Below, piece after piece: positions 169 to 14,180 of a stretch of DNA of 33,090 nt (position 1 is its first letter; each line of letters begins with the position of its first letter). The translations under genes and the position numbers were made by a program. The notes under the pieces are model-generated. The model was not told where the DNA came from. It was given only the letters and a program-made list of their open reading frames with translations, and did not search any database. Origin of the DNA: a virus (Duplodnaviria > Heunggongvirae > Uroviricota > Caudoviricetes); IMG/VR virus record IMGVR_UViG_3300045993_000281, positions 1 through 33,090 of that record; one strand, 5' to 3'.

Positions 169-819
169 TCACTTATATTTGATTTGCGTTGCCATACACA
201 TCATGTGTAGACGATCCTTGTGTTTCTGTGTTATTGGTTCTTTTACAACCCATGAGACCTTGTTCACTAACAAATTGTACCACATATGCCGGTTGACAGG
301 CGACTCCACATGCATCAAACTCCATGTTTCGGCGTAACTGACAGCACCTTTTGAGCGATATTGCTCAATTGCCACGAATTCAAAACTATCCTTTCCATTC
401 GTCTTAATTGATGCGCTGAGTTCCTTTGAGCTTGAGATATACCATCGCCAGTTAGAATCCTCCCCTTTGTTTTCCCTTCCAAGCCCTTTAAACTGCTTTT
501 TACCGAGATAGAGCTTTTCATTTAAAATATCCCTTATCACGTAAATGAAACCGACTTGCTTGTCGGTCCCAAGAGGTTCATCAAACTGCCAATGTCCGTT
601 TCCACGATACTTAGTCGGGTCTACACGACTGCCTACTTTTCCCTCCAGAGATACTCTCGTTACCCTAGGTAGAATAGTAGGAGTGGCGACAAGAGGACTA
701 ATATAAGTAGTACCAATAAGATGCGCTGGGAACTCGAACTTGGGATTATCATCCAATGGGGCTTCATTCTTTGCTACTTCCTTTTTGGGAAAGTTAAACT
801 TAAACTTTTCATCATCCAT
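169..819 (-). CDS. GIY-YIG family endonuclease
   Basis: GFIYVIRD...LYLGKKQF...WRWYISSS...E-x-AE pattern typical of phage GIY-YIG nucleases; about 70-aa Pro/Lys-rich N-terminal extension. Confidence 0.75.
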   Translation of the reverse strand: MDDEKFKFNFPKKEVAKNEAPLDDNPKFEFPAHLIGTTYISPLVATPTILPRVTRVSLEGKVGSRVDPTKYRGNGHWQFDEPLGTDKQVGFIYVIRDILNEKLYLGKKQFKGLGRENKGEDSNWRWYISSSKELSASIKTNGKDSFEFVAIEQYRSKGAVSYAETWSLMHVESPVNRHMWYNLLVNKVSWVVKEPITQKHKDRLHMMCMATQIKYK

Positions 820-3425: not shown

Positions 3426-4001
3426 TTACTCTATGGTGCCCGCAACGTTACGCGAAATATCGGTGTACTTCTTATAACGTGCGTTCTTCTCTTCCATTGC
3501 TCTTGCACTTACAACGCCTACTATTCGATGTTCCTTGACCCTGGAGTTCAATAAGTCGGCATCATACATTTCTGCGGCTAAATGGTCTTCGTTCACTACG
3601 CCTGTAATAGGGTTCACGAATTTCGGACCAAATCGTAACATCTTACTACACGCCTGGATGACCTCCGCGTGTTCCTCCATACAACAAATTAATGAATACT
3701 GCGCTGCAGACAACCGGACAAATTTGGCGTCTAGGTCAGCCACGGTGTAAAGCTTGTGAAACGTTGAATCTTTCAAAATAGTCAGGCCGCGAATAGGGTC
3801 TTTTACTAACCAATCGCCGACTCGCGCTACGTGTATTTCTTGCGACACTTCGTTGTAAACCTCCAAATGCCTTTCATGGCTTGGGAGTCGTGTGCCTTTA
3901 ATCGAACCAGAACACCAATTCTCTATAACGTCTTGATTGTCTTCTGTAAATCTCATGGCCGAAACTGCGGCCAGCCCTTCTTGTGTAAGTGTATAATTCA
4001 C
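3426..4001 (-). CDS. Two-domain protein with C-terminal MazG-like (dimeric NTP pyrophosphatase) domain
   Basis: N-half ends ARVGDWLVKDP..GLTILKDSTFHKLY (common phage module); C-half MEEHAEVIQACSKMLRFG...LAAEMYD resembles MazG EExxE...ExxD helices. Confidence 0.55.
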   Translation of the reverse strand: MNYTLTQEGLAAVSAMRFTEDNQDVIENWCSGSIKGTRLPSHERHLEVYNEVSQEIHVARVGDWLVKDPIRGLTILKDSTFHKLYTVADLDAKFVRLSAAQYSLICCMEEHAEVIQACSKMLRFGPKFVNPITGVVNEDHLAAEMYDADLLNSRVKEHRIVGVVSARAMEEKNARYKKYTDISRNVAGTIE

Positions 4002-6387: not shown

Positions 6388-6557
6388 TTATTTTCCTTTG
6401 AAATTTCGTAGACACCGTACATTGCCACTAGAAAGAAACCCGTGGACCATAGCGGCATGATCCACCAGGGGCGATACCCGATATACGTCAGGAAGGGCAA
6501 TATCCACACAGAGGCAGTCATGTACAAGCCTAGGATAAACCATCTAATGGATTTCAT
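6384..6557 (-). CDS. Small membrane protein (two hydrophobic segments)
   Basis: Likely start MKSIRWF at 6557; two TM-like stretches; ATGA overlap with the next gene. Confidence 0.6.
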   Translation of the reverse strand: MKSIRWFILGLYMTASVWILPFLTYIGYRPWWIMPLWSTGFFLVAMYGVYEISKENK

Positions 6558-8421
6558 ACCAATCTTTTCCAATCTTACCTCCACCGTCCATTATTGTAAC
6601 GCCGAAAAGTTTCGGCCCTTCTTGAAACGCCTTTACACCTAACTCCTTTGCCCGTTCCGCATGTTCTTCCGGAACCATAAAGTCTAGCTCATCGTGCATG
6701 AATATCAGCGGTCTGTATGGAATCCCCTCTTCCTCTAAGTACTGCATAAGGAGCATACAAGCGCCAGCACAAGTTGCCTTCTCACAAGCTTGCAACAAAT
6801 ACACTAGTAATTTATGAAAGCTATCGCAATAAATCTTGTTGCCAGCGATACCTTCAATATATCCAGCATTACCGAATTGCCGCGTCTTTGCAAACATGGC
6901 TTCCAGCTTTTCTACCAGAGTCTTGAATCCTGGCACTGCCTTTGTAAAGCCTAGCTTCAGGCGTTTACCTTTTTCGCTATCGATTTTTCCGAAGATGTAA
7001 CTCCACAACTTATCTCCAGATGCTCCAAAGAGGAAGGCGTACAGAATCCTTTTCGCAGCGGATCGAGGGACTACATAATCAATCCCCATCTCTTTCAGTA
7101 CAGCCGTGAGCGCGTTAGCATTATACTGGTGAATATCTCCGTGCAGTAGTTGATGTGTAAACTCTGGGGATTTCAGATAGTGCGCCAAGCCACGTGCTTG
7201 GTTACCTGCGCTATCGCAACCTATCAGTTTCCATCCAGGTAGGCATCCAAATAGACCACGCATTTCTTTCCCCCACACACTATCCGCGCTAGGAACATTC
7301 ACGATGGTAGTATGCGTAGCCCTCATAGAAGGTGTACCGATGGTGAAGCACTTTCCGTGTAACATACCCTCAGAGTCGCAGTTAGCCAGCCACCCTTTCA
7401 GGAGACCATGTCTTGACTTTGTGGTAAGAAAGTCACAATACATCTTACCATCACCGTCCATGCATTCTAGACTGTCTTCTGTGATCTTTGGTGATGTCTT
7501 TACCTTTCTCGTACGTTCACTGCCCTCGATTGGCTCTTGCTTAGTGTTCCATTCAGTTGGAACCCAACCATTCCTGAAAAGGAATATCTTTACATCAGCT
7601 ACACTATCCAAATCTAGCATTTCGAATGTTACACGGCTATACTCACCTTCAACTAATCGATTCAAATCCTGCCCTGTTTCAGGCAGTATACCGAACCAGT
7701 TTGCTGTGTGTAAATTATAATCGCCATTCTTGATCCATTTCGGAATCTTTGGTTCAACTACACCTAGCTTCTTATCGACGGCAATTGTCTTACTCCCAAG
7801 ACGCGGCAGTAACTTATCCCTGACAGCGTTCATCTCAGCTTCCATTAATTCGAACAGAGCGTTCCCTGCTTCTCGATTAAATGGCCATCCGCCAATTTCA
7901 GCGTCAGTGCACCATTTAGATGTAGCGTGTTCTGCAAGCATATAGTCAGCAATCTGTGGTCTACGTTCAAACAGTGTAGTGAATTCACTAAAGAGACACT
8001 TGTAGACTTTTGTGGTTAGCACTAAGTCTTGCTGCCAGTATATCCACATTTCTTCCGAATACTGGGAAAAATCTTCGAACTCTAACTTAGGACAACACAG
8101 GAATTCACCCCAACGCGCTAAGCCATGTCCATCAGCACCGAACCTTTTATAGTTAAGTATCTGGGACATGATCATAGTGTCGTGGAGTTTTGTTCCTTTC
8201 TTAGGCGCCCATTTGAATAGCTTCTTGAGCACTGGCAAATCGAAGCCGATAATATTGTGGCCGACAATCAGCTTCATTTTATCGAATTCCTCCATCCAAC
8301 CTAGATCACCATCGAGCCATGTCTTTATCTCTCCGGTGTCCAAGTCGCGATATCCAATAATCCAGCATCTCGTGCATTCATGCAGCAGCCCGTCAGACTC
8401 TACGTCCACGACACCTCTCAT
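6544..8421 (-). CDS. Family A DNA polymerase with 3'-5' exonuclease (T7 gp5-like)
   Basis: ExoI DVESDGL, ExoII GHNIIGFDLPVL, ExoIII YWQQD; motif A GCDSAGNQAR, motif B AKRILYAFLFG, motif C MHDEL. Confidence 0.95.
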   Translation of the reverse strand: MRGVVDVESDGLLHECTRCWIIGYRDLDTGEIKTWLDGDLGWMEEFDKMKLIVGHNIIGFDLPVLKKLFKWAPKKGTKLHDTMIMSQILNYKRFGADGHGLARWGEFLCCPKLEFEDFSQYSEEMWIYWQQDLVLTTKVYKCLFSEFTTLFERRPQIADYMLAEHATSKWCTDAEIGGWPFNREAGNALFELMEAEMNAVRDKLLPRLGSKTIAVDKKLGVVEPKIPKWIKNGDYNLHTANWFGILPETGQDLNRLVEGEYSRVTFEMLDLDSVADVKIFLFRNGWVPTEWNTKQEPIEGSERTRKVKTSPKITEDSLECMDGDGKMYCDFLTTKSRHGLLKGWLANCDSEGMLHGKCFTIGTPSMRATHTTIVNVPSADSVWGKEMRGLFGCLPGWKLIGCDSAGNQARGLAHYLKSPEFTHQLLHGDIHQYNANALTAVLKEMGIDYVVPRSAAKRILYAFLFGASGDKLWSYIFGKIDSEKGKRLKLGFTKAVPGFKTLVEKLEAMFAKTRQFGNAGYIEGIAGNKIYCDSFHKLLVYLLQACEKATCAGACMLLMQYLEEEGIPYRPLIFMHDELDFMVPEEHAERAKELGVKAFQEGPKLFGVTIMDGGGKIGKDWYEIH

Positions 8422-8428
8422 GATTGCC

Positions 8429-9046
8429 TCAACTCAATAACTTATCTATTTCTTCTACTCGTATGGGCTTGTTTCCGTTCTTTATGTATGCAGCAAGGAA
8501 ACGAATGTACCATACAGATTTTAGCAACTCCTGAACGTCATTGTCTTTCTGCCCAAGTCTGTCCAGATACTTTCGTGCCTGTAATTCGACAGATGCTTTG
8601 AAGCAATCAGGATCACGGAAACGTGGAAGATACTGCATAACCTCCAACCATTGCATATCTTTCACGTATCCTTGATAGTGTGATGGATTAATCGGGTCAG
8701 GCTTTTTGATAAAACCAGGTTCACCGACTTTGGAATAATGCGCAAAGAAACCGTCACCTGCAGTTAGCCCTTGATTCAGATGAATACCAGTCTCAGATTC
8801 ATCGAATGGTTTCCAAGCAAAATTCCTTTCCAGCGTCTGGCGCCATTCCATCACGTCCTCAGGTGTATGTAACTCTCTGGAACTATGAACATCTACCCCA
8901 TCACTAATATTTACCCACGGTGTGCCGCCATCTGATCTTATTGTAGCTACAGCAGCTTCCACTTGGTTAAAATTATCTGTCGTATCCTTTCGAATACGCC
9001 CAGAATACACATCATAGGTGTATCTCATGCTGTCTATCTTAGCCAT
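8429..9046 (-). CDS. DUF3310 domain protein (T7 gp1.7 nucleotide kinase / SaV-like) with N-terminal extension
   Basis: INPSHYQG...EV...KYLDRLGQKD...ELLKSVWYIRFL signature. Confidence 0.75.
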   Translation of the reverse strand: MAKIDSMRYTYDVYSGRIRKDTTDNFNQVEAAVATIRSDGGTPWVNISDGVDVHSSRELHTPEDVMEWRQTLERNFAWKPFDESETGIHLNQGLTAGDGFFAHYSKVGEPGFIKKPDPINPSHYQGYVKDMQWLEVMQYLPRFRDPDCFKASVELQARKYLDRLGQKDNDVQELLKSVWYIRFLAAYIKNGNKPIRVEEIDKLLS

Positions 9047-11885: not shown

Positions 11886-14180
11886 TTACGCGAATGCGTA
11901 CTCACTGTCTAAGATTAGATTAATATCGAGATTCCCCATTTCTACTTTTGAGACGTCACCATTTATGTCGCGCATGATAGATGTAAGCGGATCATGCGAG
12001 TACAACTCTACAAAGGACTCCCGTATGATTACAAATAAATCTGCCATATCGCCAAGCAAACAACCGAAACTATCATGAATGGTAGTCACTGGAAAGTCTG
12101 CTCTATTTACTGCTATCGTCAAATGCGCAGCATCAAGGCTGTGTATTGCATTTGGACTTGCCCCTTGGCTTTGTTTCTTCTTACTTAATTGTGTGGTTTC
12201 CAGAAAACATATAGCTAGTTGAAATGTGTTTTCATAGTAGCCTGTCGAATTACGGATGCCTACTGGTGGGCCATATTGCACCCATATCTTCTTAACCGTA
12301 CCTTCGGTGTAGTGTTGCGTGACAGGGAAGCCTGTTCCAGGAACCTTCCATGATAGGAATTGTCCGGCAGTTTCTGCAGCCTTACCAGCAGCTTCAAATA
12401 CACTTAGGAGTTGCATGGGCCTCTTTAAAGATACTCGGCAGTCTTCATAGACTTCACGCCCCATATAGGAACCCCATTTGTGTTCCATGGCAAACAACTG
12501 CTCAATGCCGTGTTTTCTAGCATCATCAATCTGCTGCTGACCTAGCCCATATGCTGTTCCGCCGTAGGGCAGCGTCATGATGTTTCTCTTTACTATCTTT
12601 CGCCTATGCTTCCCATCTTTGATTCTGTTCCAATAAACAGGGCATGCCATTGCAATCAAATCTATACGACTCTTTTTGAACGCCATTATCTCTGTTATTA
12701 ATTCTTTTCTCCTGTCGCTCTTAAGGGGTGCTTCTGATATTTGGCGTTTGAAATCCGCCAGATTATCAATCAAATTTTCGCAGTCTTCCACATCAGTTGC
12801 CGACATTTCGCTTACAGCCAATTCAATCCTACGCCACACATGGTCTGCTACGTACTTATACAAATCGCCAGGTAATGGACTCGGCACGAGGTTAACGTGA
12901 GGTGCAGTTACTTCGTCCCTTGTAAGTGCCGATAAGTGTTGGCTACCGTTATTACTCCCATCGATATAACACTCAAGATGCGACTCGTAATTGTATAGAA
13001 GCAAGTCCCAATCATCGCTATCAGTTGGGTCTACTTCTCTTAATTGATGTACGTGAGCATCTTGCCACTCTCTCAATTTCTTTAGTTCCATGCATGCCGA
13101 CAAGAACTGCCAAGGCTTATCAGCTTGCATCCAACCTTGATTAACCTTTGGCGACTCGGCATAAGACAGTATTATTTCTTCATTGTCTAGCACCCAATAG
13201 ACTCTGTCATTGAGGGGGATTTTATCAGTCTTGTAGCCATCCAATCTCCCCGCGTCGCCAGCCCAATTCGATGCAATTGAGATAAGTAGCCAGAAGTAGC
13301 CCTGCTCTCCAATGGACTTGCTATCAGCACGGAGTAGGAGTCCTTTGGCGAGGTCCGTTCCTTGTTCATGAAGGTAAGCCGTAGCTGGATACTTTCTCCC
13401 ACGAAAGTCGTAGTAATAGAGATGAAAGAATACTTTACCAATAAACCTGCTAGCGATGCTACCAATAGCCTTTGCTTCCCGAATCTTCGACTGCTTGGCC
13501 TCGGGATTGTGCATTTCCCAGATGTCTGCGAAGGCGTCTGTTTTGTTTCTAAGGGCCCACGTATAGATAGGGTAGATGTCTTCATTTATTTTCCATCCAA
13601 CAGCTTGCGCTTTATTTAAACAATTAAATACCAATGGATGTGTTTCTGGTGTAAGTTCTTTCAACACATCCTTGCTTGAAGTTTTTACCATAGTAACACC
13701 TGTGACATGTTTAGTGTCAGTCCAGGGGCAGTATGGGGTTTCGCTGGGCAATTTTTCAGTTTTGTTTAGGTGTAAGCTATCCCACATCTTGGATAACTCT
13801 TCCTCATTAATAATCTCTATGACATACGTTTGGTGGCCATTGCCAGCTTTTCCGAGTATGACCTTTATAATTTCAAAAGCCTCGAAAGAGTATAGAACAA
13901 ACGCTCCTGCTTTTGCGGCAATCGCACTGTCCTTTTTTAGTTTATACTTAGTCCTCACACCATGACCAATAGCACTAATAACCTCCGTCATAAGTACCAT
14001 CTTCTTATCCACACCACGCCCAGTACGTGAGTATAAATAGAGGATGCCTACGGAGGCGTCTACTAAATCCTCTATGTTTACCATAGGGTCTGCTAGAAAC
14101 TTCACCGGATTTTGTGGTGCAATTTCAGATGCAATTCTTTGCATTAAGGATGCGATTAGTTTTTGTTTTATCGTTTCCAT
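11886..14180 (-). CDS. Single-subunit T7-type DNA-dependent RNA polymerase
   Basis: YDFRGRKYP, motif A IDGSNNGSQH, motif B RKIVKRNIMTLPYG, PNAIHSLDAAHL, motif C IHDSFG, C-terminus EYAFA (T7 ends FAFA). Confidence 0.97.
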   Translation of the reverse strand: METIKQKLIASLMQRIASEIAPQNPVKFLADPMVNIEDLVDASVGILYLYSRTGRGVDKKMVLMTEVISAIGHGVRTKYKLKKDSAIAAKAGAFVLYSFEAFEIIKVILGKAGNGHQTYVIEIINEEELSKMWDSLHLNKTEKLPSETPYCPWTDTKHVTGVTMVKTSSKDVLKELTPETHPLVFNCLNKAQAVGWKINEDIYPIYTWALRNKTDAFADIWEMHNPEAKQSKIREAKAIGSIASRFIGKVFFHLYYYDFRGRKYPATAYLHEQGTDLAKGLLLRADSKSIGEQGYFWLLISIASNWAGDAGRLDGYKTDKIPLNDRVYWVLDNEEIILSYAESPKVNQGWMQADKPWQFLSACMELKKLREWQDAHVHQLREVDPTDSDDWDLLLYNYESHLECYIDGSNNGSQHLSALTRDEVTAPHVNLVPSPLPGDLYKYVADHVWRRIELAVSEMSATDVEDCENLIDNLADFKRQISEAPLKSDRRKELITEIMAFKKSRIDLIAMACPVYWNRIKDGKHRRKIVKRNIMTLPYGGTAYGLGQQQIDDARKHGIEQLFAMEHKWGSYMGREVYEDCRVSLKRPMQLLSVFEAAGKAAETAGQFLSWKVPGTGFPVTQHYTEGTVKKIWVQYGPPVGIRNSTGYYENTFQLAICFLETTQLSKKKQSQGASPNAIHSLDAAHLTIAVNRADFPVTTIHDSFGCLLGDMADLFVIIRESFVELYSHDPLTSIMRDINGDVSKVEMGNLDINLILDSEYAFA

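Follow-up and report, generated by a model that had tools for sequence, protein, structure and literature searches.

A T7-like phage DNA polymerase with Gln, Phe and Glu at three coupled positions of the nucleotide pocket

What does it mean when a phage DNA polymerase departs from two residues that are treated as fixed throughout its family? Textbook family A polymerases hold a motif A glutamate (E480 in phage T7) under the sugar of the incoming deoxynucleoside triphosphate (dNTP), where it is hydrogen-bonded by a motif B tyrosine (T7 Y530). The two residues have been called universally conserved, and the bond between them invariant (PMC3715850). The polA gene considered here lies in a window of 33,090 nucleotides (the whole stretch of DNA that was analysed), which makes up the opening 33 kb of a tailed-phage record of 97,090 bp, IMGVR_UViG_3300045993_000281, rated 100% complete. 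Its product carries Gln in place of the glutamate and Phe in place of the tyrosine. An earlier reading of the window (hereafter the original prediction) had proposed a compensatory redesign of the nucleotide pocket, perhaps in concert with neighbouring DUF3310-like and MazG-like genes. We find a third coupled residue, a Glu in motif 6, and consider the Gln/Phe/Glu set to be probably an old, widespread, lineage-level alternative rather than something that this phage evolved to suit special nucleotides or its gene neighbours.

The gene polA occupies positions 6544..8421 on the minus strand, a stop-free open reading frame of 625 amino acids (aa) encoding a T7-like family A DNA polymerase with an N-terminal 3′–5′ exonuclease and a C-terminal polymerase domain. 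The Pfam profile DNA_pol_A (PF00476) matches residues 304-622 with 51.3 bits (cut-off 34.3), and among proteins of solved structure T7 gp5 is the nearest in sequence (expect value, E, 8.5e-24). A model computed with AlphaFold2 (AF2), with 100 homologues as input, reaches a predicted local distance difference test (pLDDT) of 96 and a predicted template modelling score (pTM) of 0.91. When this model was submitted to Foldseek, the top matches in the Protein Data Bank (PDB) were all T7 gp5 chains (template modelling score, TM, 0.79-0.81; E about 1e-33), with Pol I large fragments ranking after them.

Motif A of the enzyme reads D-S-A-G-N-Q-A-R (Asp403-Arg410; 7192..7215, minus strand). It keeps the catalytic Asp403 (GAT, 7213-7215), and Gln408 (CAA, 7198-7200) occupies the steric-gate column of T7 E480 and Klenow E710. 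Motif B, the O helix (Arg453-Gly466; 7024..7065, minus strand), keeps Arg453, Lys457 and Tyr461, with Phe465 (TTT, 7027-7029) in the column of T7 Y530 and Klenow Y766. HMMER aligns the motif A octapeptide with T7 D-A-S-G-L-E-L-R, and K-R-I-L-Y-A-F-L-F-G of motif B with T7 K-T-F-I-Y-G-F-L-Y-G, both free of gaps and with high posterior confidence; MAFFT chooses the same columns. The Glu-to-Gln and Tyr-to-Phe changes of the original prediction are exact in residue and coordinate, as is its statement that the 762-equivalent Tyr is T7-like: Tyr461 (TAC, 7039-7041) stands in the column of T7 Y526 and Klenow F762, the position of dideoxynucleoside triphosphate (ddNTP) selectivity. The same position, B3, is Tyr in the T7-like PolA cluster 5 (PMC10201439).

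The pair is not peculiar to one genome. Among 5.8 billion proteins searched, 764 relatives fall at E up to 1e-10, and the best 120 of them, 56-64% identical to the window enzyme, were examined; they derive from assemblies of JGI, ENA, NCBI and Logan and lie on contigs of up to 155 kb. All 120 combine D-S-x-x-N-Q-x-R with L-Y-A-x-L-F-G, which argues that selection has fixed Gln/Phe throughout a large, uncultured phage clade. For a wider view, 1.84 billion cluster representatives were searched with HMMER (3965 matches), and the best 150 matches were aligned with T7 gp5. This gave 141 usable rows, T7 gp5, the window enzyme and that of roseophage DSS3_PM1 included, of which 88 have Gln at the gate (Gln-type) and 53 have Glu (Glu-type). 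Gate and motif B residues combine as Gln/Phe in 74 rows and as Glu/Tyr in 51, the remainder being Gln/Leu (7), Gln/Tyr (7) and Glu/Phe (2).

Scanning all well-filled columns against the gate residue placed another site, not the motif B Tyr, at the top: the column of T7 G618 (mutual information, MI, 0.96). Here Glu is found in 88/88 Gln-type enzymes, while the 53 Glu-type enzymes have Gly (46), Ala (6) or Asp (1). In the window polymerase the column falls in motif 6 (helix Q), H-K-L-L-V-Y-L-L-Q-A-C-E (His536-Glu547; 6781..6816, minus strand), which aligns with T7 without gaps and lies in one modelled helix (535-564). The residue itself is Glu547 (GAG, 6781-6783), three positions past the invariant Gln544, and the Q-x-x-E signature is also present in the close homologues. 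When the columns of the gate, 526, 530 and G618 are read together, the Gln-type enzymes fall into Gln/Tyr/Phe/Glu (67), Gln/Phe/Phe/Glu (7), Gln/Tyr/Leu/Glu (7), Gln/Phe/Tyr/Glu (5) and Gln/Tyr/Tyr/Glu (2), and all 53 Glu-type rows end in Gly, Ala or Asp. Neither a Gln-with-Gly nor a Glu-with-Glu intermediate was seen among the 141 rows.

Judged from this alignment, the pocket holds exactly one carboxylate, and its three positions change together, repeatedly. The active-site carboxylate thus looks relocated to helix Q rather than lost. The compensatory Gln/Phe pair of the original prediction stands as a pair and proves incomplete, its strongest partner, Glu547, having been missed. Motifs A and B of the window polymerase hold no further Glu or Tyr that could be aligned to the two changed columns; Glu547 of motif 6 comes close to such a residue.

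Several other columns follow the gate less strictly. The position before it is Leu, Ile, Val or Met in 53/53 Glu-type enzymes, and the Gln-type enzymes mostly have Asn (43 of 88) or Cys (26) there, less often Ile (9) or Ala (5) (MI 0.79); the window polymerase has Asn407 there, where Glu-type enzymes have Leu or Ile (T7 L479). The T7 T612 column, filled by Tyr541 in the window enzyme, is Tyr in 71/88 Gln-type against 3/53 Glu-type sequences, and the T7 R604 column is a weaker covariation partner. We also observed that the Asn of T7 N611, invariant in 53/53 Glu-type enzymes, varies among the 88 Gln-type ones (Asn 45, Val 23, Cys 10), with Val in the subclade of the window, where Val540 (6802-6804) replaces it. 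By our own count T7 N611 presumably corresponds to Klenow N845, a DNA-contact residue described as conserved.

Did the three residues arrive once, or more than once? A FastTree tree computed without the three motifs implies 6 gate changes, with 5/5 contrasts concordant. On an IQ-TREE tree the gate switches between Glu and Gln 9 times, matched in exactly those 9 cases by a change at the third site. Counting the well-supported contrasts, 5/5 are concordant for both partners (9/9 when weakly supported branches are counted), and every independent Glu-to-Gln contrast also loses the Tyr, confirming that the paired change noted originally is genuine. Three polymerases with Gln/Phe/Glu (P0237, P0241 and P0234) nest among Glu-type enzymes on the tree. 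With the motif columns removed, their nearest relatives are Glu/Tyr/Gly enzymes in both the N-terminal and the C-terminal half, which means that they acquired the triad convergently. The same similarity in both halves rules out that these three are mosaics with an imported Gln-type polymerase domain. On the evidence of the trees, the Gln/Phe/Glu set arose several times independently, and since the literature describes all other family A groups as Glu/Tyr, it is the derived state. The only Glu-type polymerase with an acidic third site, P0216 (Glu/Tyr/Asp), is sister to P0237 with 98% local support and might represent a step on the way from one state to the other.

The remainder of the active site is conventional. 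Motif C, His576-Asp577-Glu578 (6688..6696, minus strand), which supplies the second catalytic carboxylate pair (T7 D654/E655), is intact and invariant in alignment A1, a set of 100 sequences used for the conservation of catalytic and exonuclease residues. Asp403, Asp577, Glu578, Arg453 and Lys457 align to T7 D475, D654, E655, R518 and K522; in A1 each shows conservation of at least 90%, up to invariance. The exonuclease motifs Exo I (Asp6, Glu8), Exo II (Asn56, Asp61) and Exo III (Tyr128, Asp132), encoded within 8026..8406 on the minus strand, are likewise all intact and at least 90% conserved, from which proofreading is predicted to be active.

How a polymerase might work with such a pocket is suggested by laboratory mutants of the Klenow fragment. 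In E710Q, the overall dissociation constant (Kd) for the correct dNTP is 230 µM vs 0.83 µM, incorporation is slow and the enzyme is a mutator (PMC3715850). It closes poorly (K2 0.52 vs 6.1) and does not close better with a ribonucleoside triphosphate (rNTP; K2 0.056 vs 0.083), and Y766F is near wild type and shifted toward the closed state (K2 9.6; PMC3715850). Because E710Q closes poorly and Y766F favours the closed state, a lone Gln would need compensation, and Phe would push in that direction. In Bst Pol I, closed crystal structures show the motif B Tyr bonded to the gate Glu, and simulations show it bonded to the Gln of helix Q as well (PMC12756729), which indicates that helix Q borders the nucleotide pocket.

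The helix Q Gly or Ala of canonical enzymes (T7 G618) leaves room for the Glu-Tyr pair. We hypothesize that in the window polymerase Glu547, one helical turn past Gln544, reaches Gln408 and orients its amide through an amide-carboxylate hydrogen bond. It would thereby take over the role of the Tyr hydroxyl, which would become unnecessary or obstructive and give way to Phe or Leu; some lineages would keep the Tyr while the 526 position turns to Phe. As Gln is isosteric with Glu, the steric block against the 2′-hydroxyl (2′-OH) should persist, and Tyr461 predicts a T7-like acceptance of ddNTPs, for which the basis was reportedly given by Tabor and Richardson in 1995. On balance, we think it likely that the gene encodes an active, proofreading T7-type replicase whose pocket floor is built from a different but equivalent, compensated set of residues.

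The triad is also present in cultured phages, as motifs read directly from their polymerases reveal. Gln/Phe/Glu occurs in Pelagibacter phage Kolga, Roseobacter phage CRP-7, Vibrio phage 1.253.O (Zobellviridae), Alteromonas phage PT11-V22 (Myoalterovirus), Pectobacterium phage Wc4 and Felixounavirus UAB_Phi87. SIO1 and ICBM1 (Cobavirinae) have Gln/Leu/Glu, and Citrobacter phage CVT22 (Zobellviridae), read at that site only, has the motif 6 Glu. Glu/Tyr with Gly or Ala is found in T7, LUZ100, Dagda, Bjorn, HTVC104P, S-CBP4, Pelagibacter phage Ran, Kuravirus TH06, Ccr29, JSF5 and SE131. The last of these, a Salmonella phage, was considered as a Felix O1-like phage and rejected as such; it belongs to the Grimontviridae and is canonical (Glu/Tyr/Gly). 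About 300 phage-collection records have polymerases 64-71% identical to that of Wc4, an Ounavirinae phage. The cultured phages with the triad infect unrelated hosts and differ in morphology; the design ranges over marine siphoviruses, podoviruses and myoviruses, the Felix O1 group and the Naomviridae, the last with Tyr and with DNA that contains deoxyuridine (dU).

The Naomviridae raise the question of whether the Gln/Phe pocket is instead an adaptation to non-canonical DNA, with dU or a modified base, acting together with phage nucleotide-pool enzymes such as the DUF3310-like and MazG-like neighbours. We regard this explanation as quite unlikely, although several facts speak for it. The closest cultured polymerases, those of DSS3_PM1 and DSS3_VP1, belong to dU-DNA phages (PMC8323127) and also have the Gln gate and the motif 6 Glu; DpoZ of 2-aminoadenine phages shows the same Tyr-to-Phe change (PMC8599892, PMC10201439); and the genome of the window phage has MazG-like, DUF3310-like, HD and class II ribonucleotide reductase genes. 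However, profile searches of the whole 97-kb genome found no deoxycytidine mono- or triphosphate (dCMP/dCTP) deaminase, ThyA, ThyX, dUTPase, PurZ or TGT/DpdA, with control genomes matching each time: the PF00383 deaminase profile gave no match at E up to 1 (13/14 control genomes positive), and PF00709, the PurZ-type adenylosuccinate synthetase, matched nothing (14/14). An HD_4 protein of 186 aa (genome 71391-71951) reaches only E 2.2 in BLAST against gp82 of DSS3_PM1, a dTMP phosphatase, and so has no BLAST similarity to the Naomviridae enzyme. The triad of Felixounavirus, Myoalterovirus, Zobellviridae, Kolga and CRP-7 likewise argues against reading the pocket as a signal of unusual nucleotides, since we know of no modified DNA in any of them. 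The substitutions lie on the sugar and minor-groove side, and dU and deoxythymidine (dT) differ elsewhere, at C5 on the major-groove side, which counts against dU. The authors who described DpoZ consider its Phe unlikely to explain base choice (PMC8599892, PMC10201439). Moreover, ordinary metagenomes yield members of the clade in abundance, whereas dU DNA is reported to be under-recovered (PMC8323127).

The proposed collaboration with neighbouring genes fares no better. The gene immediately upstream of polA (8429..9046, minus strand) encodes a 205-aa protein whose C-terminal domain resembles DUF3310 and the PSHY region of T7 gp1.7 in profile matches. The match to Pfam DUF3310, at 23.5 bits, falls slightly short of the cut-off of 24, and PHROG families labelled 'nucleotide kinase' match at 2.7e-9. 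The BLAST match to T7 gp1.7 is weak (E 0.22) and confined to the PSHY motif region, and on that account the kinase label was not adopted. T7, which has gp1.7, has ordinary DNA. A second candidate, a 191-aa MazG-like nucleoside triphosphate pyrophosphohydrolase (3426..4001, minus strand), is matched by phrog_4856 (2.5e-10, residues 91-184) and by no Pfam family. In a relative, contig L026, whose polymerase (P0024) is 63% identical to that of the window, the gene upstream of polA (L026:7025-7606) carries PF18909 (dGTP_diPhyd_N), a profile that matches nowhere in the whole genome of the window phage. Comparison of this L026 protein with both the DUF3310-like and the MazG-like protein yielded nothing beyond a short N-terminal match to the former (11/22 identical), which looks like a modular swap of the nucleotide-handling domain between phages. 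The domain upstream of polA thus varies among clade members while the triad stays constant, and a pocket shaped in concert with the DUF3310-like and MazG-like genes is not supported.

If not to special nucleotides, loss of the gate carboxylate might still lead to relaxed sugar selection or fidelity, so that ribonucleotides become embedded in the DNA or the phage is a natural mutator with a larger supply of mutations. The mutator behaviour and weak binding of the correct dNTP in Klenow E710Q would fit (PMC3715850), as would the Val in the T7 N611 column, which may loosen the checking of the minor groove. We nevertheless find this unlikely. Gln keeps the bulk that excludes the 2′-OH, and E710Q did not favour closure with an rNTP (PMC3715850); a carboxylate is regained in the Glu547 column of every Gln-type enzyme, which looks compensatory; and the intact proofreading motifs run contrary to relaxed fidelity. 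The design is, in addition, stable over very large and old lineages with genomes of 40-97 kb, a poor fit with a crippled replicase. A sequencing or assembly error, or a decaying pseudogene, has practically no chance of explaining the residues, given an open frame of 625 codons, the same residues in 120/120 homologues from independent assemblies, catalytic residues that are all conserved and the AF2 pLDDT reported above. We also entertain, as a doubtful option, that the relocated carboxylate defines a functionally distinct class with altered acceptance at the sugar or minor groove, which would help to explain why dU-DNA Naomviridae arose inside this lineage. Such a class might accept dUTP or 2′- or base-modified dNTPs, or differ in its metal or fidelity behaviour.

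Some points weigh against an equivalent, compensated pocket of lineage-level age, which remains our preferred interpretation. We infer the Gln408-Glu547 contact from covariation and helix geometry, and our search of the literature found no characterised Gln-type enzyme, for which reason retained sugar selectivity and fidelity are predictions. A sign test on the five well-supported pairs cannot fall below p = 0.0625, and PolA phylogenies of this depth, at about 30% identity, carry uncertainty. Finally, the nearest cultured polymerases, at 37% identity, are those of dU-DNA phages, and the Gln-type pocket may be tied to uracil use in part of the lineage.

Our search of the open-access literature found neither the Gln-type gate nor the Glu of motif 6 described, and the virioplankton PolA papers discuss only position 762. 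As far as can be told, the Gln/Phe/Glu enzymes function in the ordinary way, and they are a real, unremarked exception to a textbook invariant. The Glu-Tyr bond has been used to explain both sugar selection and a fidelity checkpoint, and a large group of natural replicases without either residue amounts to a natural experiment on the role of the pair. For T7 polymerase or Klenow it predicts that a Glu-to-Gln change would be rescued by Gly/Ala-to-Glu together with Tyr-to-Phe. The G618 column could also serve as a third diagnostic column, beside 762, in the classification of viral PolA, and the Gln/Phe motif change should be regarded as a poor marker of modified DNA.

The genome that surrounds the gene encodes siphovirus-type tail proteins, a T7-type single-subunit RNA polymerase (window 11886-14180), a T7-type primase-helicase and the class II ribonucleotide reductase (genome 90665-92623). 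The replication module of the window contains a SegE-type GIY-YIG homing endonuclease (PF19835, 8e-18; window 169-819, minus strand), about 400 bp downstream of a 5′–3′ exonuclease gene (1229-2221), and the same arrangement is found in the relative L026. Two genes of that relative are split by homing endonuclease genes (L026:2034-4996 and L026:13319-16071): an HNH gene interrupts that of its T7-type RNA polymerase, and a LAGLIDADG gene that of its class II ribonucleotide reductase, leaving two pieces of each. Both are uninterrupted in the window phage.

Elsewhere in the genome, positions 79236-81459 (L006:6236-8459, minus strand) encode a nicotinamide/nicotinate phosphoribosyltransferase (PF04095, 4e-43) followed by a gene with a weak phosphoribosyltransferase domain, and together they look like a phage pair for salvage of nicotinamide adenine dinucleotide (NAD). 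A weak DHH/DHHA1 phosphoesterase-like protein of 288 aa is encoded at genome 83336-84202; it and the HD_4 protein are further candidate nucleotide-pool enzymes.

Among known systems, T7 gp5 (PDB 1T7P, 2AJQ, 6P7E; cluster 5 of Czernecki et al. 2023) shares with the window enzyme its fold and domain order, the exonuclease motifs, Asp403, the His-Asp-Glu of 576-578, Arg453, Lys457 and the Tyr of the 526 column. The two are 22-23% identical, and the window enzyme is 79 residues shorter (625 vs 704 aa). It differs from gp5 by E480 to Gln, Y530 to Phe, G618 to Glu, L479 to Asn, T612 to Tyr and N611 to Val. The Klenow single mutants E710Q and Y766F carry the substitutions of the window enzyme, one at a time (Hohlbein et al. 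2013, PMC3715850). Natural Gln-type enzymes, in contrast, always add the motif 6 Glu, as the 88 aligned ones do, whereas the mutants keep a small residue at the third site. In Klenow this is presumably the Ala three residues past Q849.

DpoZ of the 2-aminoadenine phages (phiVC8-like and Wayne-like) shares with the window enzyme the Phe that replaces the motif B Tyr; the literature singles this out as unique, the tyrosine being strictly conserved elsewhere. DpoZ belongs to other PolA subfamilies, and no altered gate Glu is reported for it (PMC8599892, PMC10201439). The Naomviridae roseophages DSS3_PM1 and DSS3_VP1, in which dU replaces dT, encode a deoxycytidine (dC)-nucleotide deaminase and an HD-family dTMP phosphatase (PMC8323127), neither of which the genome of the window phage has in recognisable form. 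Their polymerases are the closest cultured ones (37% identical over the full length and 44% over the polymerase domain) and fall into the same well-supported, all-Gln clade as the window enzyme, with the Gln gate and the motif 6 Glu. Their motif B swaps the two aromatic residues of the window polymerase: Phe fills the 526 column and Tyr the 530 column.

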